Virus record (IMG/VR): IMGVR_UViG_3300037400_003880
DNA from: a virus
Taxonomy: Duplodnaviria; Heunggongvirae; Uroviricota; Caudoviricetes
Length of the DNA stretch: 64,000 nt
Strand: one strand, 5' to 3'
A program made the position numbers and the translations under genes. Each line of letters opens with the position of its first letter. The first letter of the stretch is position 1. Below the pieces are notes generated by a model, which ran no database searches, had not been told where the DNA came from, and worked only from the letters and a program-made list of their open reading frames with translations. Positions 1 to 62,687 of the stretch are shown here, one piece after another.

Positions 1-107
1 ATTTTATAATACCAGTAGTGCAAGATATTATAGTTTTGGTTGTTTTACTATAAAGTACGATAAGACTTAATGGTCGACTATGGAGTGGACCGTACTAGAG
101 GAGGCGT

Positions 108-312
108 TATGATAATGTCTGAACACACGATTGCACAGAGCCTTGGAAGACTGCAAACTGCAAAGATCGCCATTGGCGATGCTATCACAGCAAAAGGCGA
201 CACTGTATCTACTGGTGATGGACTAGAAGATTTTCCAGCTGATATTGCAACAATTCCGAGCGGTGGTGGGATATTCAATTTTCACATGCGATTGGCAGTA
301 TCACTAAGTTAA
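108..312 (+). CDS. hypothetical protein (68 aa)
   Basis: ATG follows an AGAGGAGG ribosome-binding site. The ORF is in the track, has no in-frame TAG, and shows no recognisable motif. Confidence 0.4.
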
Positions 313-332
313 GTTCATATAGTCCTAGTTCG

Positions 333-674
333 GTGAGTGTGTATAACCCACGCTCATGCTCAATTAGCGATGCAAGTACTAATTATACAAGTATCATGTT
401 TCCGATTATCACTACAAGTTCTAATGTTTTTATATGTCTCCCTGTTTATATTAACATTGACACTAGCGCACTTAGGGCGTCTGTCTCGTATAATATACCG
501 TCAAATTTTCCATCAGCATATGGGTATAATGAAAACACCATGACATTGTATTCCTACTATAAGAAAGATCCAGCTGCGAACTGCACGGTTGATACTTCAA
601 AGATTAATTTTTCTTTTGATTCACCGAGCAGTAACTTCTTCGGCGATTTTATTCTTAAATTTGATAAAACGTAA
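333..674 (+). CDS. hypothetical protein (start uncertain; GTG at 333 or internal ATG)
   Basis: ORF from the six-frame track. The sequence is low-complexity Ser/Asn/Thr-rich and has no clear ribosome-binding site. Confidence 0.3.
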   Translation: MSVYNPRSCSISDASTNYTSIMFPIITTSSNVFICLPVYINIDTSALRASVSYNIPSNFPSAYGYNENTMTLYSYYKKDPAANCTVDTSKINFSFDSPSSNFFGDFILKFDKT

Positions 675-941
675 CGAATAAATCAAAATGGTAGTAACTA
701 ATGACATCGACTCTCCTGGTCAGCACGTATTGATACGATTACACAGGACATAGCATGTAACAGTATAGCTAAACTGGCAGAATTCTTGGCATCAATTAGA
801 AATATTTAAACTTATCTTAAAAACTTAATAATTTAAAATAAACAAGGGGATGTCAATTTTGATATCCCTATTTCTTTATAAAAGAAATATTTTATTGAAG
901 ATAAAGGTGCTGAAAAATACATAAAAAGTGAGGTGAGAAAA

Positions 942-1109
942 GTGCATAGCTATGAAGAATATAATGAACCAATTCAAAAACTAATTAAAATAATGAAAGA
1001 TGATTATCCTCATGAATTTATTCTTGAAATTAATAGCTTTAGTGCAGAATTAAAATCAAATTTATCTTGCAGAGTTTTTCTTGAGGAAGATGAGAATAAA
1101 GATGAATAA
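942..1109 (+). CDS. small hypothetical protein (55 aa, GTG start)
   Basis: AGTGAGGTGA ribosome-binding site upstream of GTG at 942. The frame runs to TAA at 1107-1109 and the product is acidic. Confidence 0.35.
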   Translation: MHSYEEYNEPIQKLIKIMKDDYPHEFILEINSFSAELKSNLSCRVFLEEDENKDE

Positions 1110-1332
1110 TAATAACAACTTTATAGATTTAATTAATATAGCAAGTTTTCTTTTTGGAATTATAAATTTGTAGGAAAATTTAACCTAGGGTGATAAGCAA
1201 GATATCCTAGATAATTTAAATAAAGAATATAGTTTATTATTAAACAATATTCATTAGCATTTGCAAGAGCAAGACAGAAAAATTGATAAAATTTTAGAAA
1301 TTTTAAAGGAGGAGGATAAAAATGGCCAATGA
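1102..1332 (+). CDS. small membrane protein with 3 in-frame TAG (holin-like or lysis-associated?)
   Basis: ATG at 1102 reads through three TAG codons in frame and ends at TGA 1330-1332, overlapping the next ATG. The N-terminal stretch FIDLINIASFLFGIINL is hydrophobic. Confidence 0.4.
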
Positions 1333-3217
1333 ACAATATATAAGTAAAATTGTTATTGACGGCGAATTGTATGATTTAAAGACAAAATAGTCTGACTGGG
1401 AAGAGTCAAGTTCTACAGATCCCGCATATATTAAAAATAAACCTACTATTGGTACTGCGGCAGAAAGAGGTGTTGATACAGCTCCTACAAGCGGAAGCGA
1501 TAATTTAATTACATCCGGTGCAGTTTATGACGCCATAGATCAAATCCCAAACCCAATGGTTTTTAAGGGAACTGTTGGAACTAATGGGACAACTACTGGA
1601 ACAATTGCAACTCTTCCAACTAATGGCTCCGCTAATATAGGTGATACTTATAAAGTTTTATTTGATGGGACTTATGCCTCTATTGCCGCAAAAGAAGGAG
1701 ATACTTTCATTTGCCTAACAAAAACAAGTAATTCAAATACTTGGGAAATAATTCCATCAGGTGATGAGACTGGTAGCGGTAGCGGAACTGTTACTGCCGT
1801 TCAGGCTGGCGCCGGATTACATGTTGATAATTAGACTTCTGGAGGAACTATTTCTTCACGTGGAACTCTTAATTTGAATTTAAAATCTACTACATAGTCT
1901 TCTTTAACAGCAACGGAAAAAGGTGATGCCTCTAATAGAGAATATGCTGTTGGTTTAGACTCTAATGGAAAACTTTCTGTAAATGTTCCTTGGACAGATA
2001 CGACAGATTATAACAACTTAATTAATACGCCAACTTTGGGAGCGGCTGCATCATTAGATATGGATTCATCTTTGAGTAATACAAGCACAAATCCAGTTTA
2101 GAATAAAGTGATATATACGGCATTACGAAAGTACGTTCCTATAAATGGCTCTAGTATTTTAAATAATTCATTTGAACCCGAAAGAAATGAAAGTGCAGAA
2201 TTAGGTAGCTCATCTTATCAATTTAAACATATTTATGCTAATGAAGGACATTTACAATCTATTTATTTAGCAAATGAAACAACTCCTACAATTACATATA
2301 ATGCATAGAAACATAGAGTTACAATACCTACTGATATTGTTTCTAATACAACGGCAGCAAATGGAACAGTTGCATTATTGAATGCAGTAATGCATCCGGA
2401 AAATGGAGAAACATATAAAGAAGAAAGTATTGTTGGTACTGATTCAATAAAATTCCAATATAAGAAAGGAACTACTAGTGAAATAGGCTATGCAGGTTTT
2501 ATTTTAGGAAATTCAATTGTTGAGGGTGATGAATGGAACGCAAGTGGAGAAATTGCTATTTATAATAAAAATGGTTATTATACTGAAATAATGGCAAATG
2601 AAAATTCTGTAGATAATTATTGGGTAACTTTACCAAATAAAACAGGAACATTAGCTTGTCTTTCAGACATTCGCTCTTATACAGCTGGAAGTGGTTTAAG
2701 TCTCAGTAATAATGAATTTTCACTGTCTGCTCCTGTAAGTATCGCTAATGGAGGTACTGGTGCAACATCTGCTTCTGCCGCGAGAACTAGTCTTGGACTT
2801 GGTACTGCGGCGACGAAAGATTCAACAACAAGTGTCACATCTGGAGGAACAGGCCTTGCGACTAGTGGCGCAGTATATACTTATTCAACGGCATTAACTG
2901 AGATTCCAATTACTGCTGCGACAGGTTTTAGTATTGTTGATAATATATCTAATTATTCGGAAGCTGGAAAACTTGTGACGATAAATGCTACAATAGCATT
3001 GACAGCAGCTTTAAGCGCTGGCACTTCTACAAAAACTATTGCAACATTTAGCTCTTATAAGCCAAAAAATATTGTAATAGCAGCGTGTGCTGAAAATGGT
3101 TCGTATAAAACATTATGTTGTTATATAACAACAGCAGGTAATATACAAATTGCAGGATATCCAGATATTGCCAGTGGGAAATATATTCGTGTTTCTGTAT
3201 CATATAGAATTACTTAA
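1322..3217 (+). CDS. tail fibre-like protein (about 631 aa when TAG is translated)
   Basis: AAGGAGGAGG ribosome-binding site, then ATG at 1322. One frame joins track ORFs 1556-1834, 2108-2308 and 2378-3217 across five TAG codons, with no TAA or TGA before 3215-3217. Gly/Thr/Ser-rich fibre-like repeats are present (SGAVYDAIDQ, TSGAVYTYSTALTEIPITAATGF). Confidence 0.65.
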
Positions 3218-3261
3218 TATATTTAATAAATATGTTAAAAATATATGGAGGTAGATTTAAA

Positions 3262-4038
3262 ATGAAAGGTATTGACGTAAGTTTTTGTTAGTCTGATGTT
3301 ATTGATTGGCAAGCCGTGAAAAACTCAGGCTATGGCGATTTTGTAATGATTCGTGCTGGCTATGGAAGAGTAGCTTCTCAAAAAGATGTTCGGTTCGAAA
3401 AACATTATGCTAACGCAAAAGCAGCAGGCATCCCAGTGGGAGCATATTGGTATTCTTATGCTACTACCCCTGATGAAGCACGTCTTGAAGCACAAGTTTG
3501 TCTTTCTATTATTAAAGGAAAACAATTTGAATTTCCTATTTATTTTGATTTAGAGGAACAAAGAGCTTTTAACACAGGAAAAGCAAATTGTTCTGCTATG
3601 ATTCGTGCTTTTTGCGGCGAGCTTGAAAAAGCCGGATATTTCGCTGGCGTTTACATAAGCCGTGGACCATTTATGTCTTATACAGAGCAGGACATTAGAG
3701 TAAGATATGCTCTTTGGCTTGCAGAATGGGGTAGCAGACTTAATTATTCTGGCTCAGTTGGAATTTGGCAATTCTCTGATAAAGGGAGGGTTCCTGGAGT
3801 TGATGGTTACGTTGATTTGGACGAGTGCTATGTTGATTATTCTAAGGTTATTAAAGAGAATGGATTTAATGGCTTTGAAAAACCAGTTCTGCCGCCATCT
3901 GAAGAAGGCATAGAATTGCCTTATGTTCCTAATATGACTGCATCAGATGTTCAAACTTATTTAAACTGGTGCGCTGAAAAAGGAGCAGGAAATTATAAGG
4001 ATAATGCAGAAGATTTTAAAAAGTTTTTAAATAAATAA
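3262..4038 (+). CDS. endolysin, GH25 family lysozyme (muramidase); one in-frame TAG
   Basis: GGAGG ribosome-binding site. The N-terminus MKGIDVSFC-TAG-SDVIDWQAVKNSGYGDFVMIRAGYG is the canonical GH25 opening (GIDVS..IDW..VK..G..FxxIRAGYG). The TAG falls where many GH25 enzymes have the Gln of the DVSHWQG motif. Continues into track ORF 3316-4038. Confidence 0.85.
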
Positions 4039-4169
4039 AAAAGAAATAAAATGTAATTTATGTCTGGCTCAAAACGATATCCCATCAAATTGTTTTACAA
4101 ACTACATTTTACTATAACGCCGCTAGAATAAGTTCTGGCGGCGCTCTTTATACAGTTGGAGGTTATATA

Positions 4170-4841
4170 ATGAAAAGAGATTGCTAGTGTAATCATCAAG
4201 CAAGGAACGTCAGTTTTGATGATACCATTAATTTATTTAAGAACACTTCTTCTGAGATGATAAGAAATGTTCAAAATGCTATTGAGATACTTGCTGGTGG
4301 ATAGGGTGATGGATAGGGAAGTAGCTTTATCACTAAGGACGTGGCTGATGAGCTATATTTAACAAAAGAAGAGTGGGGTGATTTTATGAATAATTATAAT
4401 TCTAAACTGGATGTTATTATTTAGAAACTTGATGTTATTATTTCTAATATGTCTACTGGTAAAAAAGTTAGACATATTACTTAGAGAGCCTATGATTATC
4501 TTGATACTCACAATGCTCTTGAAGAGGATAAGTATGTTTATTTAGTTGATAATAATGGAGTATGTAGACCAGATATTGACGGAGACGGCGTTGTTAGTAT
4601 AAGTGACGCTCAGGCTATTTCTGTTGCAGCAACAACAATTGGCTCTGGCGGTGATCCTGGATTGACACCTTGGCAATACTTGTGTGCTGATATTAATGAA
4701 GATGATGCTATAAATTCATCTGATGCCGCTGAAGCTTTGATATTTGTAACTGGGGTTGGAGCAGGAGATTATAAAGATACAGAAGAAGGCTGGAGAGAAT
4801 TCTTAATTGAAAGAGGGATAAGAGAGAGGGGTGATGATTAA
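4170..4841 (+). CDS. dockerin-domain protein (224 aa, 6 in-frame TAG)
   Basis: GGAGG ribosome-binding site, then ATG at 4170. Translated with TAG as sense it gives two dockerin type-I calcium-binding repeats (DIDGDGVVSISDAQAI and ADINEDDAINSSDAAEAL). Stop TAA at 4839-4841 overlaps the next ATG. Confidence 0.65.
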
Positions 4842-6061
4842 TGCCACTGAGTCCGGATAAAGTAGAACAATTAAATGGGGTTACTGTAAAAACTTATTTG
4901 TTAACATAGCATAATCCAAATAAAATTGCTATGCCATCAATTGGAATGTCATCCCCCATTGGTGTAACAATTCATAATACCGGCGCAATCAGTGTTGCCT
5001 CAAATACGACCCCGGCAGAACAATATACTCGTGCTACAGTAAATGGAAATATGAACGATGTCAGGGTTCATTTCTATGTAGATGATACTTGTGCATGGCA
5101 GAATCTTCCGTTAAATCTTTCTGGCTGGCACGCGGCAGATGGTTCTGGAAATGGTAATAGAAGAACAATTGCTTTTGAAGTAATTGGTAATTCTACTAAA
5201 GCAGAGGAAAACGCTGCAAAACTTGCCGCTTATTTTTTAAAGAAGTATAATAAAACAGTTGATAATGGCTTGTTCACACATACTCATTGGCTTAATGTAA
5301 GAGATGGAAAAACTGGCTCAATTGATTATTTAAATACTGCTTCTAATAAGTATAAGATGTGTCCAATATATATCTTGCCGCACTGGGTAACGTTTAAGGC
5401 TAATGTAAAAACTGAACTTACCAAATTAAATGGTGGCGCAGCACCACAAGAGCCTAAACCTGTTATAGCAAAAGTATATAGGATTAGAAAATCTTGGGAT
5501 GATATTAAATCTTAGATTGGTGCTTATGCAAACTTTGATAATGCGAAGAACGCTTGGAAAGAAGGATATATTATTTATGATCCAGATGGTAATGCAGTTT
5601 ATCCTGTAGCGGTAGGAATTACAGCATCTTCTAAAGTAGAAGAAAAAGTTGCTGATATTGATGTAACTTATAGAGTTTATGCTAAAAATAGATGGCTCCC
5701 TGAAGTTAAAAATTTAGAAGATTATGCTGGAATCAAGGGATTTCCAATGAGTGCAGTAATGATTAAAACAAGTAAGGGGCAAGTTAGATATCGTGTTCAT
5801 CAGCGTAATTCTAATTGGATGTCTTGGATAAATGCCTATAATATTAATGATATTATGAAAGGTCTTGCAGGAATGCCTGGATTAGCATTTGATGGAATTC
5901 AAATTTAGTTAAATGGTATAGATGGTTATGATATAAAATATCGTACTTCTCCAATTGGCGGAGAATATTATCCGTGGGTATATGGTAGTAATATTAATGA
6001 TTTTGCTGGATATGCTGGAAAATATCTTGATAGGCTTGAAATTGAAATTATAAAAAAGTAA
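4841..6061 (+). CDS. endolysin, N-acetylmuramoyl-L-alanine amidase (Amidase_2/PGRP) with C-terminal Trp-rich wall-binding repeats; 4 in-frame TAG
   Basis: Contains track ORF 4931-5515 (NTGAISVASNTTPAEQYTRATVNGN..GWHAADGSGNGN..AFEVIGN..THTHW, a zinc-amidase signature). The C-terminus has repeats YRVYAKNRWLPEV and RYRVHQRNSNWMSWIN (ChW-like). Confidence 0.8.
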
Positions 6062-6211
6062 GATAGCTTTATAATAGGAAGATACTAGATATCTTCCTAT
6101 CTTTTTTTACTTTATAATAGAATCTTAAGGACTTGACTTTTTAATAGTCTTGTGCTATAATTAAAATAGAATAAGTAGGAAAACTACTAAATAGAAGAAG
6201 GAGGGGTATGA

Positions 6212-6511
6212 ATGTTAAATGCAAGTACAATATTAGGTGGGCTCGGAGCTTTGGCGGCAATAGTTAATGTGATTGTAGAATTATCTAAAGCTTTTATCCC
6301 AAAAAAAGTGCCAACTTAGTTAGTTACAATTATTGTTAGTTTAATTGTTTGTCTTGTTTTTGTTTTTCTTTTTTGCGAAATAGGAATTAAAACAATTATT
6401 TTTGGTATTTTTATGACCCCAATTGTAGCTTTTACAAGTATGAATGGTTTTGATACTTTAACTAAACTATGGAAAAGATTTCAACTTGATCAGAAAGAAG
6501 ATGATAAATAA
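6212..6511 (+). CDS. holin (99 aa, 1 in-frame TAG)
   Basis: AGGAGGGG ribosome-binding site. The product has two or three predicted transmembrane helices and a charged C-terminal tail (KLWKRFQLDQKEDDK), and sits in the lysis cassette. Confidence 0.6.
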
Positions 6512-9500
6512 TGCCAAATATAAGTTATTAGACAGAAAATAAATATATAGACTCTTATGGCGATGTTTATTATTTATTAAATACCCTAATAGGTTATGGA
6601 TTATCTCGTGCTATTATGATGATGATGAGAGAGGGCGAGAAAATCAGTGAAGATTTAAGAAGTGAACTTATTAAGAAAATTGATATTGATAATTTTCAAA
6701 TACCAGATAGTTGGAATCTTTCTGTAAAAAAGATAGAAAAAGATATTGAGGATACAGTTAACGATACTTAGCTTGGAGATATTTTTATAGGAGATATAAA
6801 AAAAGGAAATGCAGGAGTTAATTTTACAAATTGTCTGGTAGAAGAAGATACAGATGGTACAAAAAAGGTTGTAAAACCTTGGAAAAATTTTACTCATTAG
6901 ACTTATCGAGAAGTAAGAAATTATGACGCATATATCAGAAAAAATAATAAATGGAAAGAAACTCCAGAATTATTGGCGGGAGAAAACCTCGATTTTACTA
7001 ATTATTATGGAGAGAATTTTAAACAAGATCTTGAAGAAAGACTGGGCTTAAATCTTTTAATGCCGTAGTATAACAGAGTTGTATAGATAGAAGATTTAAA
7101 TAGGAATTTTTGGGTAATTAGTTAGGTTTTATCAGGATTATCTTCTTTTTTGTTTGGGCCGAGCAAGATAGGTGATATACTAAAAGAATTAATTTTAGAA
7201 ATCGCTCATTTATGGTCTAATGTTGCACTCTTATGGCTTATATCAGAAGGGGAAGATGATGCACTATTTGATACATATTATGAATTTGCTACTTTAAATA
7301 ATCAAGGCTTTATGCACATGAATTATGATTCTTATAATTCACAGTCTCTTGATGATCGAATTAGAGATTTGTTTGATGCAGTTAAAGAGTCTCATCCGCG
7401 AGGTCATATTGTTCTTTTAGTTGAAGTGCGAGACAAGCATTACTGGGAAAATTACTATGCTCAGGTTTCTTATAAGCTATGCGTATTTTCTCGTTATGAT
7501 GGTCATGAATGGATTGTTGACTTATCTTTTAATAAAGGCGATGTTACTTTAGGAGAAGATGGCACTAATGAAGGTATCTTAGCAGAAAATGAAAATGGGC
7601 GTTTAATTACAGAAGGTAATGCAACTCATAATTATTTAAGGAGTACTGAGTTTAGAAAAAATAGTTGTGCATATAGGAGAGATGGAGATAAGTATTCTTT
7701 CATTTATCCGTTTATTAGTCTTACAAATATGAAAAATGATTGGGATTATATGCTTAATTTAAGAATTGTCCCATCAATTGAATTGGTAAATTTTGTAGAC
7801 ATAAATGGTGTGCAAACTCCACAGTTAAAAATTAGCTTTTTAATAGAAGATGTTGGATATGAAATGTATTCTGGAGAAACTTCAGTAATTTATAAAGCAA
7901 CAACAACAAATGAAGTTGTTTTAATAGAAGATTCAATTACGTTAAATCTTGAAAAATAGGATTTTACTAGAATTAACCCTAATAGAGAAAAATTTTTCTC
8001 TAAAACTGGCGGCTATCGAGGAGAGAATTTAACTTGTTTCTTTCTTAACACTTTAATTGCATTAAATTTCAGTGTAGTAGAGCTTCCAATGCCAGGCTTT
8101 ACACGAACTTCTATCTAGCATATTGATAATAATGGAAATAGAGCAATTCCTATTGAGCTTGATTTTCCTAATTATATTAATGATAATGGTAATATTTTTT
8201 CAAGTGCACAAGGCGTTATAAATAGGACTAAAAATTTCTTAACTAATGTTCTTAAAAATTATGTTGATGAAGAACAAGAATCATTTCAGGAAGCTCTCAA
8301 TGAAATGCCTGATGAATTAAAAGTACAATTATTAGATGAAAACTAGAAGCTTAAGACAGAAGATGATGCTTTAGACGTTATTATTATTACTTGCAAATAT
8401 CCATATAGATTGTGGCATTACAATCAAGATGAATCTTATGAAAATATTTTTTATGATTATGACGAAGAGAATAACAAAATTTAGAAGATTAAAATTACTC
8501 ACGGCGGTCTGAAAAAGAGAGGCAATGGAAGAAAAGAAGGCGAATATGTAGTATATGATGGAGATATAGATAATGCGGGTAATGTATTAAACTACGCTAT
8601 GAGTAATCTTGGATATTACCTTCTCATTTGTAAAAAGAAAAAATCTACTAATGGCAGATATTATTATGAGTGCGCCGCCATTGAAGATTACTATTATATT
8701 TTCACCCTTCCAGAAGAGCTTATTAACTATGCTGGCGTCTATGAAGATCCCGTAAAATTAGGTATCTTTAGAAATGAAGACCCAATTCTCTTTTAGAGTC
8801 CAGATGGGAAAAATTGGATTATTAAATGGGTAAGAATTTCTGGTGGACTTATTGGTTTTCAATGGAGAGATAAAGATTTTATCTGGTATGGAAAAAACGG
8901 ATTAAGCACTAATGGTAATAATGATTCCTCACGTGACGCTTATGTTAGAAACGAAGGCTCCGTAAGAGTTCTTCAGTATAATAATGATGATGATGATATT
9001 ACCAGAGTTAATCTATTTAAAACATTTAATGATGAAGTTACAGAAGCATATCCTGATTTAGTAACTGAAGAAAAATTCAGTACTAATTTAACAGGATAGA
9101 ATAAGGAATTAAAAGGGATTATAGGAAGAGTATAGACTAATTACATAAGCTTTTCGATGTCAGAAGAAGATGAGGAAAAAGTATCTTGGTGTGCAAGAAT
9201 GTAGTCACGAAACACTGATTTGTATGAAAGATTTTATTTAGATGCGAGAGTCGATTCTCCAAATGGGATGAGAGATTTTGGGAACTATTATGAAGATTAG
9301 TGGTAGGATGTTAATAATCTTTTATGGGCACCGGGACAATCTAGATATGAATATGTAGATTAGTGTTTAAATTGGTCTGCCGGCACATTAAAAAAGACCT
9401 CTGATGAAGCTGGTAATTATAAAGATGGCGGTTGGAGATTGTTTGGAACATGGTATCTTAAAACAGGTGAGACAATGCCTGGAGAAGAGAATGATAATGC

Positions 9501-9615
9501 TAGTGCAGCATTTGCTGATATGGAAGCAGCCATTGAAACAGATTATGTATTAATGAGTAAACTTCCTATATATGATTATAGCGTAGATCCTTCTACCGGA
9601 ATTACGGAGGGATAA
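6511..9615 (+). CDS. very large hypothetical protein (about 1034 aa, about 17 in-frame TAG); paralog family member A
   Basis: ATG overlaps the holin stop. A single frame runs through track ORFs 7150-7959 and 8599-8796 to TAA 9613-9615 and contains only TAG stops. Carries the motif EDLNRNFWVIS. Confidence 0.55.
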
Positions 9616-9616
9616 A

Positions 9617-11224
9617 ATGGCAGATATAATTAGTTTACAAGAAATTCTTGATGAATGTTATAGTAATAAAGAGAGTCGTGAACGTCTTGACTTATTGCTA
9701 TCTTCAATAAAGGTTTTCTTTAATTAGATTTATGATCGTTTTTCTGGAAATGACTCTGGTGGAGTTAATCTCTAGATAAAAAAGAATATCAATTCTGAGA
9801 TTAATGATAGTTACTATCAAGACATTAAAAAATCTGATTTAACTGACCTTGAAGAAGGAAATGAAGCTTCTTAGCAAGTTTATTCAGAAGTTGGATCATG
9901 GAATCATAGTGTTGTTGATTTATTGAATGATGTTCTTTTAATAACTAAAGAGGGCGATTCTACCTATAAAGTAATTGAAAATGAGTATGAAGATGATAAG
10001 GGAACTTATAAAATAATTTTCTATAAGGGAGAAAATGAAGATGTTGGAGTTCCCTTTCATGGCGCCATTAAGGTTGATATGCCAGAGGATTAGAAAATTA
10101 TTTATAAAGGTAAGGAATATGCTTTATATTATAGAATAAAAGACATATCTAAAGCAGACGCGGGAGCATCATTTAATAGAGAAGACGGCATTCCCTGGGT
10201 CATTCCATTTCACAATAATAATGGAGATATATATACTTCTGTTAGAACAGATGAAATTCTATCTGCTTTAGAGTATACTGACTATTTAAAACAAACTTAC
10301 GATGAGATTAAAAATGATATAAATAAAAACTATGTAAATTTATTAACTGATTTATATTAGAGACAAGTTGAAGTTGAAGATTTAGATAGAGACTTTTGGG
10401 TTATTAGTGAAGTAATCACTGCAATACTTAATTATTTATTTAACAACAATGGTCTGTTTGGAATTTAGAAAGGAATTTTAAATGAGATAGCATAGCTATG
10501 GTAGAATATTATTTATCTATGGTCTTTGCATGAGAAAATGAATGAAAAACCAGAAGGGCTTTATACTCACAAAGAGTTCATTTATATTGGGAGGAATTTA
10601 CGATATGGCCAATTTAGATATGATTTAGGCGGCGAGGACGATGAAGAATCAATTAAAGACTATCTTAGATAGTACAAAAAATCATATTTAAGTTGTAACT
10701 TAGTTTTAATTCCAATTGTTCGTAAAGATTATTATGAAGAAAATTTCTATCAGACAGAAAAAATTCCTTTTATTTATTATTATGACAGAGAAAAAGATGA
10801 AGAAACTTTTGTCCGCTTCAAATGGAATCCTGAAGTGCTGGAGGATAAAGCTTTTCCAATTATCACTGAAAACAAGCTCGAATTAAAAATAGATACTTTT
10901 TCTGATTTATTAGAAAATCATTATTACACTGATAATAATGAAGACTGGGAATAGATTCTAAGTCCTGATTCCGGACAATACCAACTGCTTAAAATTTCGC
11001 CATATTTTACAGAAAATGGTGTAATGTTAAAAGTATAGACGATTGAGCAAGGATCAAGATTGACTCGTTGTGAAATTTCTTTTTCTACAAATTTAAATGA
11101 TAAAGACTCTGAAAACAGAATGATAGTAAGATGTGTTTTAGTTAATGAATAGATCTCTATAGCAGAACCCGTTCAGGTGTCCTACTATTAGGGTGAACTA
11201 TTGAGTAAAAGGAGTGAAGATTAA
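9617..11224 (+). CDS. large hypothetical protein (535 aa, about 13 TAG); paralog B (EDLDRDFWVISEV)
   Basis: ATG at 9617 lies 2 nt after the previous stop. The frame stays open through TAGs to TAA 11222-11224. Confidence 0.55.
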
Positions 11225-14031
11225 TGAATAGATTCATTATAGCTCCTGAAATATGGAATGAAATAATGAATAAAATATCGGATAGTTATGAAGGAGAAAT
11301 ATCTAATAAGATTGACCCCTTTTAGAGTGAAAGTGAAGCGCCAACTGTTGATAAATTTTTTGATATAGAGCTTTCTAACTTTTGGAATAAATCTGTTCAA
11401 GACTTATATGATGATTGGAAAGAATATTATGGAGAAGAAGACCATGCAATAAATATAAATGGTTTTACCCATAAGATTAAAGAATTTGCTCATGGAGACG
11501 CAGGATATGATTTTAATAAACAGTATGTTTAGCCACAATTAATAGGGTAGAACAATAAGTATTCTCCAGATTTTGTAGCCGCGGCGCAAGACAGTAAAAA
11601 TTTACAGTTTACTAATACTTAGCTTAAAAATAACAATTACACCTATAGGCTTTTAATGCCTAAAAATATAAGACGTGTTGAAGCAGAAGATTTAACAAGA
11701 AACTTCTGGGTTATTTCTTAGGTATTAAATGGAATAGTTAACTTCCTTTTTACTGACAATTCTCCTTATGCAAAATTTTATGAAGGGATAATTAAAGAAT
11801 TAAAAGAATTGTGGGAGAATGTTTTATTTTTATGGTTTAATGCAGAAATGCTTGGTAAGCAGAAAGTTGCAGAAGGTCTGCATATAGAATTTGTTCCTAT
11901 TGATAGTGACTCTCCATATAAAAGATAGTTTGATAACTATACCGAAAGAGAAAAAAGCGAAGAAGAAATATTAGAAATTTTAAAAGACTATTATTATAAA
12001 TATCCTGAATCAAATCTATTATTAATTCCCTATTCGCGCTCTGCTCCATTTTATCGAAATTATCATACAACTTTAAAATTTTATTTGTTATGCTTTTTTA
12101 TTAGAAAAAATAACTATGAAGTAAATAGTTGGGATGATCCAAAATGCAGGAAAATTAAAAATTTTACTAAACCTCTTGAAATTGATATTAATAATTATTT
12201 AGAAAATATTACAGCAATTAGGGAGAAAGGAAAAATACTTAGACTTGGAAGACCATTATCTAAGGTTCCTAATTTTGAAGAAAATGATGAGGGAATTTAC
12301 TATGGACAAATAAGAGTTGTTCCAGATATTAAGATTAACGATGATATAAATAATCTTGGTATAACAATGAAATTATCATTATATGACGTTGGAGAATATT
12401 ATCGCTCTGGCGAAGAGGATATAAATTCTGAAAACACATTATTACAAGCATTTTATTTTACTTGTTCAGAAAAGCAAGACGAAAGTATTGAGTATGTAGA
12501 AAGTGAAATCTTTCCAAAAAATCCTCTGCCATTTTTCAATTATCCAAGAAGAAATTATGGAGGATATAAAGGAGAAACTTTAACGACTATTCGTCACAGC
12601 ATAAAAAAAAGAAACTATATTGCTGGAGAAAAGACTTCCATTTCTTTAAAGGGAGATTTGTTTAGAGTTGGAAACTTTATGGGAGAGCTTCCTGAAGAAA
12701 ATAATGTTATTAGAGAAGGTATTTATGAATTTAGAGAACAAATTAATGATAGCCATACTCATACCAATTATTTGACAAATATTGGAATGGGTGGTTTTTA
12801 GAATGGCTCGCCTGCGCCTGAAAACTGGTCTAAACTAGGCGGAGCAGAATGGATGCCTAATGAAAGTTTATTTTACACTCCCGTAGCAAGAGAAGAGTCC
12901 AATATTAGAAAATCTCCGCAAGATAATGTTGAAGATCCATGGACTTGGGGAGGTAGCGCGACAGAATTCCATTGGACATGTATAGATGATTCTTCAAGTG
13001 GAACAATCCCTGATGATTATTGGGATAAATTAATAGCAGGAGATTCTAGTTTCATTGAAAGAAATACTTATAAAGTAGAAGAAGTTACTAAACAAAGTAT
13101 AAAATACATTGGATTAGTAACTTTAAAAAGATTGCTTTTAAATAATAATTATTTAAGATATTTAAAGAAAGTCAGGGCAATAGATTGGACTCTTGATGAT
13201 CCTATTACTTTTATGGGAGCATATGGAGTAGACACGTGGGGCGGAAAAGGAGTAGGAGATAATGGAAATGTTGCTGATTAGTTATATTGGGCAACAGTTA
13301 TTTTATCTGGTTTATATATATTTCTTCCTGAGAAATTCCTTGATTATGCAAAAGATTTTGAGAAGACCTACCCTATTAATATAGAAATTAAATAGGGTGA
13401 AAAAAATTTAGGACGTCTTTTCTTTTTAAGAGAGATAAATAAAAGTGAAATAAATTTCGGAAACCCAGATGAATATCTTAAAAGGGTAGGTGGCGTTCCT
13501 TGGAGATTAGTTAGAAATATTGGTAATAGTGAAGTTGGTGTAAACTACGTTGAAATTTTCGATGAAGAGCAGAGACTATTAGGATATATTGGGCTTTCAC
13601 AAGATGAAAGTAAAGAATATGAATAGACAATGGATAAAAACCGGTATGTTACAAATTTAATTAATAATTCTGCTGCAAGATTAAAAACGAAAGATGAAAT
13701 ATTAGTTGAATTAATTAATGGAGTATTCTCTTCAAATAATGGTATTTGGAGAGTTTATGACGGAAATGATACAAATGAAGAAGGCAATAAATCAGATTAT
13801 CTAAATTATAGACAAGTTGTTGATGCACGATATAAACTTAATGGTTCTGGAGCACAAGAGACTCTTGGTTTTAGTGCAATTGCTATAAGAAGAAGAGATA
13901 CTACATTATTTACTAATGTGGGTAATTCAACAGATCCAAACTTTGAAGAAGCAAGTAATTTGATTTGGTCAAATCGCGGCTTAATGCCAGACAGCGGAGG
14001 ATATTCTGGAAATACTTGGAATTAGGGGTGA
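11224..14031 (+). CDS. large hypothetical protein (935 aa, about 12 TAG); paralog C (EDLTRNFWVIS)
   Basis: ATG overlaps the previous stop. The frame joins track ORFs 12085-12801, 12853-13281 and 13630-14025 across TAGs and ends at TGA 14029-14031. Confidence 0.55.
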
Positions 14032-14037
14032 GAATAA

Positions 14038-14316
14038 ATGTCAGAACTTTTCAATGAACAAGTATCTTCTCATGCTCCGATTCATTCAGATGCTTATAAA
14101 TGGGAGGAGTCCAATAATGGACTCCCTCCTTTTAAAGAAATTCTATTGAATGGATAGATTGAGGAGGATAAGATTTATTTTATAGAAGATTTAAGTGGTG
14201 AATCTGGATTCTTTTAGAAGTTACTATTAGAAATAGAAGACAGGATTGAAAGACTTGAAGAGCTGATTGAGGAAGCTAGTCAAATAAGTTCAGATAATTA
14301 GGGAGATGAAAGCTAA
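14038..14316 (+). CDS. hypothetical protein (92 aa, 3 TAG), acidic and coiled-coil-like
   Basis: ATG at 14038 runs to TAA 14314-16 and overlaps the next ATG. Confidence 0.45.
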
Positions 14317-16682
14317 TGGGTATGATATTTAGAAATGGAGTTGCTTTTGGTGGGCAAGGAGGAACAGATCCTATTTCTGCTGATAGTAATTAGGTAATTA
14401 TAGGAGATGGAGCAGATTGGGCTCATGGCGGCCCACTAAAAATTATAGAAACAGAAGGAGATTTTTTTGTAAAAGATAATTATAATAGCAATCTTAGGAA
14501 TATATACATCACTTCATTGCAAGATTCCCCGGAATCTTATTATAATAGAGATACCGGCGAGACTTATTTATTTGAAGCGTATTCCTTTGGAAGCCTGCCA
14601 AAACTTACTTCAAAAAAAGACTCTGACGGTCATTATAAAGAAGTTTATTCTCAAGATACTTTTTTAAAACTTAATAGCACTTCTAAAATGCTTTTAAGCG
14701 GAAAAACGGATATTCTCATTGGGGCGCAGGAATGTCTTCCTTACTCTTCCAATGCTATGGAAACAAAAATTAAAATATTCGATGGCGCAGATATTACAAT
14801 TACTGGAACTCGCTTAACTAGTACAAGAGTTATTACAGATGCGAAATAGATAGCGAGACCAAAATTACGAGCACATGGAGAAATAAATATAGATATTGAT
14901 GATGGAAATCGAATTTGGAGAAATTGTACACACTATTCTTATTTTAATGGGGATAATTCTTCTAGATATGCATGGGGAGATGAAAGTGATATTGATATCA
15001 TAGGGCCGGTTTTCTTAATTCACGACTCTCCTACTTTTCATATTTCTGGCTCTCCTTATCTTAATATAACAGATACTCCAGCCTTTTTATTAGGTGGAGA
15101 AGGATCTTTAATAGTTAGAGATTAGGCAATTTGTTAGGTTGAGAATGGTTCGTGCTTTTATATGGGACATGATAAACATGAGAGTGGATCTCCGATATTA
15201 GAGCTATATGGGGCAAGTCGAATTAGGGCGCAAGCGCTTGATAATGAAAAATATGGTCCATTACTTTCTATTGAAAGTTCCATGCTTAGTTTTTATGGAC
15301 AGGGAAACCAAGAAAAATCTAAAGCGATCCATAATAAAAAAGACCGTCCTGAAGACTATCGAGAGTGGGCGTAGAAAAGTAAAGCAACGGCAGATTTTCT
15401 TTAGTATATTAAAAATTTAACCTTCCCTCTTGACGAAGAAGAGGATAGTGAAGAAATTCAAGAAATTAAAAGGTTATGTAGTTATTGCTTTGGGCACAAT
15501 ACTGTTACTGATCTTTATCCTAACTATTCAGCCAAAAATTTTTATAGAATAGCTGATGGTGATATTGCGTCATTTTTAAGTAATTATCTTGAAATATCTT
15601 ATAATCCAACTTATGAAATTGAAAAAAATTCTCTTTCAAAATATATAAACATTTATTATCCGACAGATATAAAAATTTGGGATGCATATTCATATTCATA
15701 TTAGGATGAAAGGTATAATATTATAAATACAAATGGATCCATTGAAAGTCGTATTGGAGAAAATGTTGGTTTTGGTATTAGAAAAGTTACTAATCCAAAT
15801 CATAATAGAGTTTTGCTCCACTATTGTACGGATATGAGCAAAGTATATATTGAAATAAAATATTCAAAAAAAAGTTACTCTGATTTAGGAAATTATTAGT
15901 CTAATTTTGTAAATTATTATAATCATAAAGTTTCATGCTCTTATCTTCCTGATAAAGTAACAGATAATTACCCAATAGTAACAGACCCTTCTTCATATCC
16001 GATTGGAGAAAATTATGATGATATTTTATCAGAGCATAATGCAAATAAACCAGCATCAATATATGACCTTCTTTTTATTACCTCTAATGGAAAAGTTTAT
16101 TATAGAAAAGGAAATTGGTCACAATTTTTAAACTCAACAACTTCTAATTATGATTCTTTCTTAAGTAAACACGCAAACGAGCTATCAATTGATGCAATTC
16201 CTCAACTTAGATTCTATGGAAGTACAGGTTTTGATATCGGCGGTTTTGGTAGTACTTATCTTAGAATGGGTAGTCGAGACGGCGGAGTTATTGAAACTTA
16301 TATGCTAGATAATTGTAAATTTGAATTAAGAGATGATGCAGTTTTAGACGTAAGAGGCGCGACACAAAATAATGAAGTTTATTTTTCTAAGCCTGATAAT
16401 GGTGCTCTTGTCGCTGCATATGGAAAATCTACTTTTATTCTTGCTGGTATCGGCGATGGTAGATCAAAAAATTTACCTTCAAATTATTATGAAAAGAATA
16501 ACGGTTTTCCTTTCTTAGGGCTCTTTGATAATGCTGAATTGAGATTGGCAGATGGATGCTTTATTACAGCAAAAAGAGAGTCTGGATAGGCGACCTTTAC
16601 TTTCGGAGATAATATGGCTGGAGCATCGGTTTCTTTTACTATGGAAGACCTTTATCATTTAAAAGCATTATTAAGTAATTGA
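14316..16682 (+). CDS. large hypothetical protein (788 aa, about 10 TAG)
   Basis: The frame joins track ORFs 14517-14849, 15162-15374 and 16266-16589 across TAGs and ends at TGA 16680-16682. Confidence 0.55.
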
Positions 16683-16727
16683 CTTTTAATAAAAAATATA
16701 TTATAATAATTAAAAGAGGTGATAGTA

Positions 16728-17819
16728 ATGTATCGTATGGGTTCAGATGGCGGTGAATTTTATTCTTTCATCGCAACAAATTCATTACCAATTGGATATT
16801 CCGATGGCGCACCATTTATGTCTGCCAATAGACCAGTACCTTCTTTTAATTCAAAAGAAAAAATTTTAGGACAAACTTATGGATATATGGCTAATAGGGG
16901 AGAGCTCCGCTCTTCCCAAGCCTTTGATTCTCAAGAAAAAATGTACTCTCTTGGGAATAACTGGGTTTGTCTTGCGGTCGCAAATTATCAAAAGACATAT
17001 CACTCAACGGATATTCATGCGGATTATGTAAAAACTCCGACAGATAGGGATATTGCGGCATTTGTTGAGAATGCTCACAAGCGTGGGGTTAAAGTTTGTC
17101 TAAAGCCGATGGTAAATACAGAAGATGGAGTTTGGAGAGCACATATCGGTTTTCCAGATTTACATTCTGGAGATATGGATTATTATTGGAAATTGTGGTT
17201 TATTAGCTATAAAAATTTCCTACTCCATTATGCAGAACTCGCGCAAGAACTTAATTGTGAAATGTTCTGTATCGGCTGTGAGATGATTGGTACAGAGCAT
17301 CGTAAGTATGATTGGCTATATCTTATTGATGAAGTTCGCAGAGTTTATAGTGGTAAAATTGTATATAATACAAATCATGACAGAGAAGATGCACAGGATT
17401 GGTTTGACACTCTTGATTATATTGCAACTTCAGCATATTATCCAGTTGGAATAAATGGACTTAATGAAGATGCAATGATTCGAGAATGGAATAAAGTGAA
17501 ATGGCGATTAAATGCAATTGCTGATAGCAGGAAAAAGCAATATATTTTTATGGAAATTGGCTGCCGTTCTGCAAAAAATTGCGCAACAGAGCCATGGGAC
17601 TTTAATACACATATGGAGCCAAGCTTAGAGGAACAAGAGCTTTTTTATAAGACTTGTTTAAAGACTTTTATTGATGACCCACATTTTGCTGGTGTATTCT
17701 GGTGGGACTGGCCCACATATCTCTACCCAATTGATGCCGCGGCGCAAGATACAAGTTATTGTATTTATGGTAAACCAGCAGAACAGATAGTTAGAAACTA
17801 TTATAATAAGGTGAAATAA
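16728..17819 (+). CDS. TIM-barrel glycoside hydrolase-like protein (GH5/GH113-like; possible depolymerase)
   Basis: AAAGAGGTGA ribosome-binding site, then ATG at 16728. The ORF has no TAG. Motifs VKVCLKPMV, EMFCIGCEMIG and FWWDWP look like a (beta/alpha)8 hydrolase. Confidence 0.55.
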   Translation: MYRMGSDGGEFYSFIATNSLPIGYSDGAPFMSANRPVPSFNSKEKILGQTYGYMANRGELRSSQAFDSQEKMYSLGNNWVCLAVANYQKTYHSTDIHADYVKTPTDRDIAAFVENAHKRGVKVCLKPMVNTEDGVWRAHIGFPDLHSGDMDYYWKLWFISYKNFLLHYAELAQELNCEMFCIGCEMIGTEHRKYDWLYLIDEVRRVYSGKIVYNTNHDREDAQDWFDTLDYIATSAYYPVGINGLNEDAMIREWNKVKWRLNAIADSRKKQYIFMEIGCRSAKNCATEPWDFNTHMEPSLEEQELFYKTCLKTFIDDPHFAGVFWWDWPTYLYPIDAAAQDTSYCIYGKPAEQIVRNYYNKVK

Positions 17820-18326
17820 TGGCGAATAACGATGATATTATTTATGATATAATTAATAAAGAAGTTAAGTCTGATTTACCTCAAGGGTCTGGAGAAAAAG
17901 ATTACAATTTTGTCTTTACAGGTTTTGATGATGAAGCGTATCATTAGGGTAATAAGCCATATGTCTTTATTGCTAAGCTAACAAATAAAAAAAAGGAAGA
18001 AATTTAGTCTCGCGGCGCCACTCTCGCTCAAGAAAGTGATGACAAAGGAGTCCTTTTTGATTGGGGAGAGTTTATCTGGCATTTTGACTTCTATTATGAT
18101 GACTATATGGAAATGCTAGAAGCCGGAGAAACAAAAGACGGAAGAATTTATTTCACAAGAATAGATGATAATGAAATCATTAATTCTCCAGGAAGTACAA
18201 TTACAGAATAGGAAATGGCAATAAAAACGAGGTCTTTTAAAAAGGTAGATTATAAAGACTTACTTACAAGAATTATTACCGATATTAATGAAGCAGATGA
18301 CATTCTGAATAAAAGTCAACCTTAAA
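17819..18326 (+). CDS. hypothetical protein (168 aa, 3 TAG)
   Basis: ATG overlaps the previous TAA. The frame runs through three TAG codons to TAA 18324-18326 and is followed by a rho-independent terminator. Confidence 0.5.
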
Positions 18327-18349
18327 TGGTTGACTTTCTTTCTTTTTTG
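18314..18349 (+). terminator. rho-independent terminator (AGTCAACC..GGTTGACT plus T-run) whose 3' arm supplies the -35 of the next promoter
   Basis: Perfect 8 bp stem followed by TTCTTTCTTTTTTG. Marks the end of the TAG-dense late block. Confidence 0.7.
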
Positions 18350-18358
18350 TGATATAAT
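18330..18358 (+). promoter_or_regulatory. sigma-A-type promoter (TTGACT-17-TGaTATAAT)
   Basis: Consensus -35, 17 bp spacer and extended -10, located upstream of the helicase gene. Confidence 0.6.
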
Positions 18359-18391
18359 TTTTATAGAAAATGAAACACGGGAGGTACAGAA

Positions 18392-19477
18392 ATGAAATTT
18401 AATATTCGACAAGAGAAAGTTCTTAATGCTACTGAGCCTAAAATCTTATGTCTTGCAACAGCAGCTTGCGGCAAGACAAGGGTTTTAACAGAACGCATCC
18501 GTCTTTTAATTAATGAAAGAGGAGTATCTCCAAGAGATATTGTTGCAATTACTTTCACAAATATGGCTGCCGATGAAATGAAACGTCGTCTTGGTTCAAT
18601 TGCGAATGAAGCTTTCATTGGGACTATTCACTCTTATGGAAATAAAGTTTGTATTAATAATAACATTAATACTCAACCTTTTGTAGATAACTATGAATTT
18701 GATAAAATCCTAAAGAAAGCTATCACTATTCCCTCTGAACGTTATCCTCATATTAAGCACGTTCTAGTTGACGAGTGTCAAGACTTAAGCCCGTTAGAAT
18801 ATGCTTTTCTTGAGAAAATTCCAACTGAAAATATCTTTTTTGTTGGCGATAATCGACAGGCGATCTATGGGTTCAAGGGATCAACAGATGAATATCTTGT
18901 TTCCATGTATGAAGATGAAGCTTATAAAAAGTATTATCTTGTTGAAAACTATCGTAATGCGCAAGATATTCTTAATTTTGCAGATAGTTTAATTGCATCT
19001 TTTATTCAATTAAGTCCTAAGTCTATCCCCGTAAAGACAAAAAGTGGCGAAGTTATTAAGGAATCATTTTATGAAGCATTGGAAGAGCTTGAATATTCTG
19101 GTAATTGGGGATCTTGGTTTATCTTAACTCGCACCAATGCAGAATTGGCACAGGTTCAAGAAATGCTTGATCAGAAAAAGATTCCTAATATTACTTTCAA
19201 GAAAGGAGATCTCGACCTAACAGAGCTTGACCAACTTATGCAAAGTGATAGAGTTAAGGTTTTAACTATTCATTCTGCAAAAGGATTGGAGAATAAAAAT
19301 GTAATTGTAGTGGGCGCGCGAACTTACAATGAAGACGAGAGAAAGATTGCTTATGTAGGGGCAACCAGAGCAGAAAACCGCCTATATTGGTGTCCCGCAG
19401 TTTCGAGAAGAATTCGTGGTAGAAGAAAAGACTCTACAACCACAGGACATATTAAAACTGATATGATAGAGTTTTGA
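18392..19477 (+). CDS. SF1 DNA helicase (UvrD/PcrA-like)
   Basis: Walker A AACGKT, ITFTNMAADEM, Walker B VDECQD and VGDNRQAIYGFKG motifs. GGGAGG ribosome-binding site. No TAG. Confidence 0.8.
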   Translation: MKFNIRQEKVLNATEPKILCLATAACGKTRVLTERIRLLINERGVSPRDIVAITFTNMAADEMKRRLGSIANEAFIGTIHSYGNKVCINNNINTQPFVDNYEFDKILKKAITIPSERYPHIKHVLVDECQDLSPLEYAFLEKIPTENIFFVGDNRQAIYGFKGSTDEYLVSMYEDEAYKKYYLVENYRNAQDILNFADSLIASFIQLSPKSIPVKTKSGEVIKESFYEALEELEYSGNWGSWFILTRTNAELAQVQEMLDQKKIPNITFKKGDLDLTELDQLMQSDRVKVLTIHSAKGLENKNVIVVGARTYNEDERKIAYVGATRAENRLYWCPAVSRRIRGRRKDSTTTGHIKTDMIEF

Positions 19478-19482
19478 TATAG

Positions 19483-19692
19483 ATGGAGAATTTGGTTATC
19501 TATGATGATAATGAACTACAGATTGAGGTGGCGGGATGGTTCAATTATTATCTAAATAATATTTATGTTCCGACAATAAAGTTGAAAGATAAGCATTTTA
19601 AATCTTTGCTCCCATTTGTTACTACTCGATTATCTAAATACGATAGTCATTCATATCAAATAGCATATTGGGGCAAAGCCCCTATTTTTTAG
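19483..19692 (+). CDS. hypothetical protein
   Basis: Track ORF on the + strand. Confidence 0.4.
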   Translation: MENLVIYDDNELQIEVAGWFNYYLNNIYVPTIKLKDKHFKSLLPFVTTRLSKYDSHSYQIAYWGKAPIF

Positions 19693-19734
19693 TTTGATAA
19701 ATACATTTGTTTTGAGCCGCCCTTCGATATTTTT

Positions 19735-19983
19735 ATGAATGCTTAGGAATGTGTAAGCTCTTGTCCTTATGACATTTCTTAGAATCCAAAAGAATGTGAA
19801 GAGGCACTTGATGAATTGTACTAGTTAAAGGAAGGAGATAACTTTATTGCTCATATTTTTTACGAAAAGATTCATGAAATATAGGGATTCTTTGCTTATG
19901 TGAACTCTGAAACTTCTCAAATTTATGTAATGTTTTGGGGTTATAAACCTCCTACAGAGGAGGAACTTGATTAGTTTGTTTAA
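19735..19983 (+). CDS. hypothetical Cys-rich protein (82 aa) with 5 in-frame TAG
   Basis: ATG at 19735. Five TAG codons share one frame with no TAA or TGA until 19981-83. Not present in the standard-code ORF track. Confidence 0.5.
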
Positions 19984-20089
19984 TTTTCTGTAGATCCCTA
20001 TAGAAAATTTTACATTATATATGTCGCTATTTTAGCGATTGGCTTTTTGCCAGCGTAGTTTTCCTTTTTAATAAAAGGAGGAATTTTTA

Positions 20090-21944: not shown

Positions 21945-22170
21945 ACTTGAAACTGGTTGGTAGCTTTTTGTTTTTATTCTAGTTATGCTTGGATTACTTT
22001 TTGCAATAATTGTCTTTCAACTTTGGCTGTGGAAAATTATTTTTGTTGCGGCATTTGGTTTACCACAGCTAACTTTCTGGCAAATGGTTGCGCTAAATAT
22101 TTTTTGCGATATATTATGCTGTGGAAATAATAGATGGCTTTCAATTAAATTTAAAGGGGAGGAGTTATAA
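21934..22170 (+). CDS. small membrane protein (78 aa, 1 TAG)
   Basis: GGAGG ribosome-binding site. Two hydrophobic helices. Overlaps the ThyX ATG. Confidence 0.45.
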
Positions 22171-62676: not shown

Positions 62677-62687
62677 GGAGAGTTATA

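Follow-up and report, generated by a model that had tools for sequence, protein, structure and literature searches.

TAG as a probable glutamine codon in a tailed phage genome fragment carrying two tRNA-Gln-like suppressor tRNAs

Introduction

The DNA considered here, referred to as the window, is a stretch of 64,000 nucleotides from a tailed virus (Caudoviricetes; IMG/VR record IMGVR_UViG_3300037400_003880), in which the codon TAG, a stop in the standard code, appears within the reading frames of many genes. A preliminary description of this stretch had proposed that TAG is a sense codon, probably for glutamine (Gln), across a late gene module. The computational analysis reported below leads us to the view that TAG is very probably decoded as Gln through tRNAs encoded by the phage itself. 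Recoding of this type (code 15) is familiar from extensive earlier work on gut phages, and what is new here is a lineage without a deposited phage relative.

Genes of the TAG-rich block

The genes in which TAG is most abundant form a block at 1322-18325, which is read as follows with TAG taken as sense (lengths in amino acids, aa).

1102-1332, plus strand: small gene, 76 aa, three in-frame TAG codons
1322-3217, plus strand: tail-fibre-like protein, 631 aa, five in-frame TAG; weak match to PHROG 1591 (tail fiber), E=3.5e-4
3262-4038, plus strand: GH25 lysozyme, one TAG (codon 10); Pfam PF01183, E=3.5e-25
4170-4841, plus strand: dockerin type I domain protein, 223 aa, five TAG; Pfam PF00404, E=3.6e-5
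4841-6061, plus strand: Amidase_2 endolysin, three TAG (codons 23, 225 and 356); Pfam PF01510
6212-6511, plus strand: holin-like hydrophobic protein, 99 aa, one TAG (codon 36); PHROG 18218 (unknown function), E=1.8e-12
6511-9615, plus strand: giant protein, 1034 aa, 17 TAG, first of three paralogs
9617-11224, plus strand: second paralog, 535 aa, 13 TAG
11224-14031, plus strand: third paralog, 935 aa, 11 TAG
14038-14316, plus strand: 92-aa gene, three TAG; the public gene calls on the identical contig L001 include it
14316-16682, plus strand: large protein, 788 aa, nine TAG
16719-17819, plus strand: TAG-free GH113 glycoside hydrolase, preceded by a consensus promoter of its own at 16679-16707; Pfam PF22612, E=1.8e-104
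17819-18325, plus strand: 168-aa protein, three TAG, final gene of the block

Nine of the genes named in the preliminary description, from 1322-3217 through 14316-16682, were recovered with the same coordinates, but the last gene ends at 18325 rather than 18326, two recoded genes (1102-1332 and 14038-14316, with three TAG each) had been overlooked, and the TAG-free GH113 gene (16719/16728-17819) within the block had not been listed. Because the gene at 1102-1332 contains three TAG codons, the recoded block starts upstream of the gene that had been taken as its first. The genes had also been described as each overlapping the start of the next, which is the case for the TAATG junctions at 4841, 6511, 11224, 14316 and 17819, while the other junctions are gaps of 1-150 nucleotides (nt).

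The label of a late module suits the two lysins, the holin-like membrane protein and the weak tail-fibre match, but it does not extend to the four large proteins, which have no assigned function and gave no match in Pfam or PHROGs. The product of 6212-6511 is called holin-like from its position between lysins and the hydrophobic segments in its predicted sequence, which together suggest this role. Only five homologs of the giant protein family turned up among 5.8 billion proteins; four of these (L003, L004, L005 and P0121) were checked and all lie on TAG-recoded contigs, P0121 being a match to the window itself. A scan of IMG/VR with the 935-aa paralog found no relative, and an AlphaFold2 model of the 1034-aa protein built from a five-sequence alignment had a mean predicted local distance difference test score of 30 and was unusable. 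The tandem paralogs at 6511-14031 (1034, 535 and 935 aa) have the common motif EDLxRxFWVIS(q/E)V, in which q denotes TAG.

Coding density and in-frame stop codons

Open reading frames (ORFs) were re-called under each single reassignment of a stop codon, and coverage was measured as the fraction of positions 1-20,000 occupied by plus-strand ORFs of at least 100 aa. The standard code leaves only plus-strand fragments in 1322-18326; the longest measures 366 aa, and the intervals between them reach 3.3 kb, in agreement with the few short ORFs and multi-kilobase gaps described previously. Reading TAG as sense, as had been proposed as a check, brings coverage up from 0.384 to 0.901, and the longest ORF, 366 aa before, then measures 1034 aa. 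The large gain is specific to TAG, and recoding of TGA or of TAA can be rejected, as coverage is 0.392 with TGA as sense and 0.490 with TAA as sense.

The composition of the frames leads to the same reading. Over the 5468 in-frame codons of the block there are 69 TAG (70 when all 12 of its genes are counted) and no TAA or TGA, whereas the remaining two frames of the same DNA contain 532 TAA and 396 TGA, or approximately 8.5% per codon; because these two stops are so dense in the other frames, frames that stay open over such lengths cannot be the result of chance or decay. Over the whole window, in-frame TAG codons number 126-132, the exact count varying with the start-codon calls, and in-frame TAA and TGA are both zero.

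Protein domains and homologs across TAG

Several TAG-containing genes encode recognizable enzymes, both in the block (GH25 and the amidase) and in three genes outside it.

22170-22850, plus strand: ThyX, one TAG (codon 33) within the Thy1 domain match; Pfam PF02511, residues 7-187
22850-23872, plus strand: PAPS-reductase-like PP-loop protein, four TAG; Pfam PF01507, compared through homolog columns and through codon pairs with the relative L002
29396-30187, plus strand: Dam-type (D12 class) adenine methyltransferase, three TAG; Pfam PF02086, residues 3-203

Pfam matches cover TAG codons in GH25, ThyX, the PAPS reductase and Dam, which bears out the earlier statement that the last three genes need read-through of TAG in order to reach their conserved motifs. 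For GH25, the TAG had been noted near the Gln of the motif DVSHWQG, and alignment to PDB entry 1jfx places that Gln at the TAG. The amidase likewise carries in-frame TAG, as stated, and full-length homologs align over all three of its sites, but these lie outside the Pfam Amidase_2 match itself (residues 39-149). End-to-end homolog alignments pass over the TAG sites of both the PAPS reductase (2936 matches) and the amidase (2862 matches). Homologs that stop at the TAG positions, or that fail to align past them, were looked for and none was encountered. Searches of PDB sequences were uninformative on this point for ThyX, whose matches begin past the TAG, and returned no match for Dam.

An independent assembly, Logan contig L001 (SRR12668996), is 100% identical to the window over 21 kb (12850-33872), and the public gene calls on it are the TAG-sense genes, with TAG translated as Gln; a public pipeline had therefore already handled this sequence as code 15.

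Suppressor tRNAs and the decoding apparatus

The suppressor tRNAs, their promoter and the phage tRNA-Gln that they resemble lie on the plus strand in the right half of the window.

48116-48190, plus strand: phage tRNA-Gln(UUG)
49196-49224, plus strand: consensus promoter, 69 nt upstream of the suppressor pair
49293-49368, plus strand: suppressor tRNA 1 (Sup1), anticodon CUA, U1-A72, A73, encoded CCA, tRNA-Gln-type D-arm
49369-49439, plus strand: suppressor tRNA 2 (Sup2), anticodon CUA, U1-A72, G73, no encoded CCA

The presence of two CUA-anticodon tRNAs on a tRNA-Gln scaffold at 49293-49439 had been recognized from the letters alone and is confirmed by ARAGORN calls, by Rfam scores of 61 and 60 bits and by Gln-like cloverleaves. 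Both cloverleaves are canonical and share the architecture of the phage tRNA-Gln(UUG): U1 pairs with A72, the D-stem is 3 bp long and carries AAGYGG(G)TAA as its loop, and the anticodon loop reads CU-CUA-AC. Among the 20 tRNAs of the window, the nearest to Sup1 is tRNA-Gln(UUG) (78% identity) and the nearest to Sup2 is Sup1. BLAST matches of the pair in annotated phage genomes fall overwhelmingly on genes annotated as tRNA-Gln. The CCA end of Sup1 abuts base 1 of Sup2 at 49368/49369 with zero spacer, so that a single RNase P cut would yield both mature ends.

These tRNAs resemble Escherichia coli supE (glnV), which has a tRNA-Gln body with the anticodon CUA, is presumably charged with Gln and acts as a weak partial suppressor in a standard-code cell. 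The D-arm of Sup2, TCGCCAAGCGGTAAGGCA, is one that we take to be identical to that of E. coli tRNA-Gln. Unlike supE, however, Sup1 and Sup2 would have to serve genes with up to 17 TAG codons.

In another reading, which we regard as improbable, TAG remains a leaky stop, partially suppressed so as to tune down protein amounts while the code itself is not switched. Suppressor tRNAs do normally compete with release factor 1 (RF1), no RF1 antagonist and no release factor 2 (RF2) gene was seen in the window, and three genes have a TAG at most three codons before their TAA or TGA stop, which might be real TAG stops with back-ups. These three C-terminal TAGs are nevertheless close to the roughly one to two expected by chance, by our own estimate from the counts. 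Moreover, leaky read-through would not give full-length product from genes with 17, 13 and 11 TAG codons, and the occurrence of TAG at conserved Gln positions of enzymes, presented in the next section, also speaks against a leaky stop.

Related suppressors were sought in IMG/VR. An exact scan with a 22-nt suppressor anticodon arm found no match, and a scan with a degenerate pattern found nine loci, eight of which have CUA tRNAs bearing a tRNA-Gln-type D-arm. These eight (L020-L027) are on contigs of 9-343 kb, several of them 155-343 kb; the flank of L024 is plainly TAG-recoded, with coverage rising from 0.33 to 0.71, and the short flanks of the other loci are mostly uninformative.

Two further tRNA-like genes were noted in the window. 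The one at 48194-48268, 3 nt past tRNA-Gln(UUG), scores 36 bits in Rfam, was missed by ARAGORN and has the loop CUUAUAA; it looks like a tRNA-Ile(UAU). The one at 53143-53215 (Rfam 41 bits) has a Sup-type D-arm, a 6-nt anticodon loop (AUCAAA) and two acceptor-stem mismatches, and is probably a degenerate tRNA copy.

Amino acid specified by TAG

The identity of the residue was addressed by a codon-level comparison with six diverged relatives (L002-L007), whose proteins are 25-88% identical to those of the window where they were aligned. None of the database proteins from these relatives is reproduced by standard-code translation, and the relatives are therefore TAG-recoded too. Among 243 aligned TAG sites, TAG is present in both sequences at 17, and the remaining 226 have a non-TAG partner, most often Gln (49; CAA 36, CAG 13), followed by Glu (32), Lys (24), Asn and Asp (16 each) and Tyr (8). 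Log-likelihoods calculated with the substitution frequencies of these alignments favour Gln over every other residue for TAG, by 99 units over Glu and 106 over Lys; the margin for Gln on four loci is 77 units. In alignments of at least 60% identity, Gln is found at 12 of the 19 non-TAG partners. Codons one step away from TAG are rare as partners (AAG 7, GAG 8, TAT 8), and the top partner, CAA, is two mutations away, so that synonymous drift rather than mutational proximity explains this spectrum.

At amidase codon 225 (window 5513-5515, motif SxIGAY), TAG corresponds to CAG in 10 of 10 standard-code loci from Ruminococcus/Oscillospiraceae genomes, and the column is Gln in 119 of 120 protein homologs, standard-code calls of JGI among them. 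The PAPS reductase column in DTGIEFxAT is Gln in 86 of 120 homologs. Paralogs inside the window show the same exchange, with GEqHY against GEQHY or GKQHY and the repeat DLTGqKF against LTGQVF. In addition, Gln content with TAG counted as Gln is 30.2 per 1000 codons in the block and 32.3 in the rest of the window, and it falls to 17.5 in the block without TAG; the block and the rest thus reach equal Gln content because TAG is counted as Gln.

That TAG is a sense codon for some other residue (Glu, Lys, Tyr, Leu, Trp or pyrrolysine) is, in our judgement, very unlikely. Glu and Lys do come next after Gln among the partners, and ARAGORN prints "Pyl" for CUA anticodons, a label that merely reflects the anticodon; however, the likelihoods of Glu and Lys lie far below that of Gln, as given above, and the invariant columns are Gln. 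The pylT tRNA has an atypical shape. Pyrrolysine decoding was considered and rejected, since the cloverleaves of the suppressors are canonical, Gln-like and unlike pylT, and no PylS or PylBCD family member was matched among the scanned proteins, the unscanned ORFs all being too short to encode one.

Two observations weigh against Gln decoding by the phage tRNAs. The variable columns of the PAPS reductase and the amidase pair TAG with Lys, Glu, Asn or Asp as often as with Gln, although this is as would be expected for a surface Gln. Furthermore, no release factor, glutaminyl-tRNA synthetase (GlnRS), other aminoacyl-tRNA synthetase (aaRS) or code-change protein was found within the 64-kb window, so that charging would fall to a host enzyme and the tRNAs would have to compete with RF1. 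Even so, the density gain, the domains that extend across TAG, the 17 shared TAG sites, the partner spectrum and the conserved Gln columns together agree with the proposal that TAG is a sense codon, and very probably one for Gln.

Probable host

The catalytic half of the amidase is 58% identical to endolysins of Ruminococcus phages, and the same half is 52-61% identical to loci in Ruminococcus/Oscillospiraceae genomes, including the isolate R. flavefaciens MA2007, which read normally under the standard code. These matches, together with the dockerin domain, point to a Ruminococcus-type host that would use the standard code, and we infer from sequence a Ruminococcus/Oscillospiraceae bacterium. 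Amidase homologs lie on contigs of 144-190 kb, and the full genome is therefore probably of that size. The window is probably part of a large tailed gut phage with a host of this type.

It is extremely unlikely that the host itself reassigned TAG and that the phage merely follows the code of its host. Phages that match the code of their host do exist for code-25 hosts, and the present host is known by inference only, but 55 of the 87 genes in the window are TAG-free, the phage has CUA tRNAs of its own, and the related Ruminococcus/Oscillospiraceae loci show fully uninterrupted frames in the standard code, with no gain when TAG is read as sense. We know of no bacterial lineage described as using TAG for Gln. 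As for damage, whether a decaying prophage, pseudogenes or sequencing and assembly errors, the many stops in long genes do resemble pseudogenes under the standard code, but this explanation has next to no probability, given that only one type of stop is found in frame, that comparable in-frame TAA or TGA and frameshifts are absent, that an independent assembly is identical over 21 kb and that TAG is conserved at 17 sites in relatives of 30-80% identity.

Distribution of TAG over the window

The preliminary description had placed the recoding across the late module, and the enrichment there is strong, but TAG is also used window-wide, in 32 of the 87 genes (37%). The block has TAG in 11 of 12 genes, compared with 21 of 75 elsewhere; TAG is thus enriched in the block without being confined to it. 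As a share of Gln positions, TAG accounts for 42% in the block and 14% elsewhere (Fisher odds ratio 4.4, p=3e-12). Outside the block, TAG-rich genes are mostly endonuclease-like, the Dam and PAPS reductase genes and the gene 19483-19983 also being prominent.

26397-27491, plus strand: GIY-YIG endonuclease-domain protein, 11 TAG, outside the block
31530-32474, 54990-56459, 59979-60914 and 62161-63905: set of TAG-free genes with higher GC content at third codon positions (GC3)

The TAG share of a gene falls as GC3 rises (rho=-0.57). The genes of this TAG-free set strongly prefer CAG over CAA, have GC3 of 0.34-0.46 and encode Band_7, DUF2828/DUF7788, RNA ligase, isochorismatase-type nicotinamidase and NAPRTase proteins; this set, together with an AAA_33+HD protein (42601-43503), suggests functions in NAD salvage and tRNA/RNA repair. 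The trend with GC3 fits the published path in which low GC content is followed by drift from CAG to TAG. The sequence context of TAG is also biased, as 45% of TAG codons are followed by A, compared with 32% of CAA/CAG codons (p=0.005), and 51% are preceded by T, compared with 35% (p=0.0007). An early placement of the first TAG in a gene, with p=0.001 over all genes and p=0.07 for the block with its securely placed starts, was set aside as an effect that start-codon miscalls could produce.

Three TAG-rich paralogs (34162-34893, 44373-45275 and 60970-61884, with 7, 7 and 3 TAG) have repeated CxC/CGC cysteines, repeated DLTGQKF and a C-terminal DUF2726-like nuclease domain, and look like mobile endonuclease genes.

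Promoters, mechanism and timing

The window contains 23 perfect TTGACT-N17-TATAAT promoters (6133-63975), all on the plus strand, compared with 0.17 expected by chance. The sites include 6133, 16679, 18330, 21332, 48052, 49196 and 62102, and most have the TG of an extended -10 element, with a spacer that is T-rich and then A-rich.

6133-6161, plus strand: consensus sigma-A-type promoter with extended -10, immediately preceding the genes for the holin-like protein and the TAG-rich giant proteins

One promoter class precedes the tRNA operons, TAG-free genes, the suppressor pair and the operon of the holin-like and giant genes alike, and terminator-like hairpins at 4118, 6074 and 18312 bound operons. 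Because this class is shared, the host polymerase probably transcribes some or all of the TAG-rich block in the same way as the rest; the window shows neither a separate type of late promoter nor a sigma factor.

A mechanism may be proposed in which TAA and TGA terminate translation and the two phage CUA tRNAs, derived from tRNA-Gln, decode TAG as Gln. The suppressors would be charged with Gln by a host enzyme, either GlnRS or glutamyl-tRNA synthetase (GluRS) together with GatCAB, and would out-compete the RF1 of the host, so that TAG-containing genes, those for the holin-like protein and the lysins included, would give full-length products only once the suppressor tRNAs have built up. In a standard-code host, TAG genes would not be full-length until this accumulation, and late or lytic functions would thereby be delayed. 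With up to 17 TAG in a gene, decoding would need to be nearly complete, as 50% read-through per codon leaves almost no full-length product.

The shared promoter class is compatible with a plausible model in which translation rather than transcription would gate the TAG-rich genes, and two weaker signs, the frequent A after TAG and, with its start-codon caveat, the early first TAG, point the same way. Two findings, however, count against such a role in timing: the operon of the holin-like and giant genes has the same promoter as TAG-free genes and the tRNA operons, and TAG is also found in the ThyX, Dam and endonuclease genes, which are not obviously late. We consider it doubtful that recoding is the main or sole timer of late gene expression. 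If it were the sole timer, transcription would be unstaged and the timing of lysis purely translational, set by the build-up of suppressor tRNAs against RF1, and genes with 17 TAG would also imply a further means of neutralizing RF1.

Comparison with known recoded phages

Several clades of gut phages combine recoding of TAG to Gln with suppressor tRNAs, partial use of the new code and a bias towards lysis and structural genes, and 26-71% of genes are recoded in alternatively coded phages of standard-code hosts (Borges et al., 10.1101/2021.08.26.457843). Gating of late or lytic genes by recoding is a model proposed in the same work (Borges et al., 10.1101/2021.08.26.457843). A CUA suppressor tRNA is present in approximately 40% of published TAG-recoded genomes. 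The window shows every sequence-level feature of this class, as the assignment to code-15-type recoding had anticipated. Like the code-15 phages of Borges et al., which include large clades infecting Firmicutes, it combines low GC content, TAG aligned with Gln, a phage tRNA(CUA) and an origin in animal-gut metagenomes, and its recoding is likewise partial (here 37%), with a preference for structural and lysis genes and with genes of the homing-endonuclease type recoded too. There are also differences from those phages, in that the window lacks a "code change module" of RF2 or aaRS genes, the suppressor consists of two tandem tRNAs with zero spacer, and the heavily recoded giant genes form a family without homologs outside this lineage.

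In crAss-like phages, code 15 has been validated by metaproteomics (Peters et al., 2022, PMC9523058). The TAG-recoded members of that group resemble the present phage in how the codon is reassigned and in the late-stage use proposed for it. Whereas those phages have Bacteroidota hosts, Ruminococcus/Oscillospiraceae are indicated here by the lysins, by the dockerin domain and by matches to genomes.

In the phage phAss-1, TAG interrupts approximately 28% of ORFs, and the genome has many tRNAs, among them several tRNA-Sup(CUA) judged to be of Gln type, and lacks a dedicated aaRS (Babkin et al., 2023, PMC10607447). The present phage is similar to phAss-1 and the proposed genus Phassvirus in being a large gut phage with many tRNAs, Gln-type CUA suppressors and no dedicated aaRS. 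Members of Phassvirus show 82-86% nucleotide similarity within the genus (PMC10607447), and membership of the present phage was considered and rejected: in contrast to this level, no nucleotide similarity was found in the GenBank phage collection, which is assumed to contain phAss-1 (OQ749652), as megablast of the 17-kb block had no match and blastn of 22170-26400 (ThyX/PAPS) gave a single 87-nt match, an unrelated fragment. A tblastn search of the same phages with the giant protein had no match either.

Most of the lysis and host-interaction genes are lost when this genome is annotated under the standard code; code 15 is required for it, and some public pipelines already apply that code. The window adds a code-15 lineage with a probable Ruminococcus/Oscillospiraceae host, while knowledge of phage code reassignment is otherwise unchanged. 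It also offers a compact test case for a translational timer, in that a tandem suppressor pair with its own promoter, a TAG-rich holin and lysin block and a uniform promoter type are found together.

Additional observations

No terminase was found in the window. Genes with carbohydrate- or adhesion-related products include those for GH113, the dockerin protein (4170-4841) and a pAdhesive_15 protein (35411-37120), which is secreted and carries a long Thr-rich tail; the GH113 gene (16719-17819), which belongs to a mannanase family, is kept at the same place in the relative L007.

The gene at 24823-26400 encodes a P-loop protein into which an intein is inserted (Hint and LAGLIDADG matches), with junctions GAAGCGK|C ... 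VVHN|S, and is TAG-free; the TAG-rich GIY-YIG gene at 26397-27491 follows it. In the relative L007, a UvrD helicase homolog also has a LAGLIDADG match.

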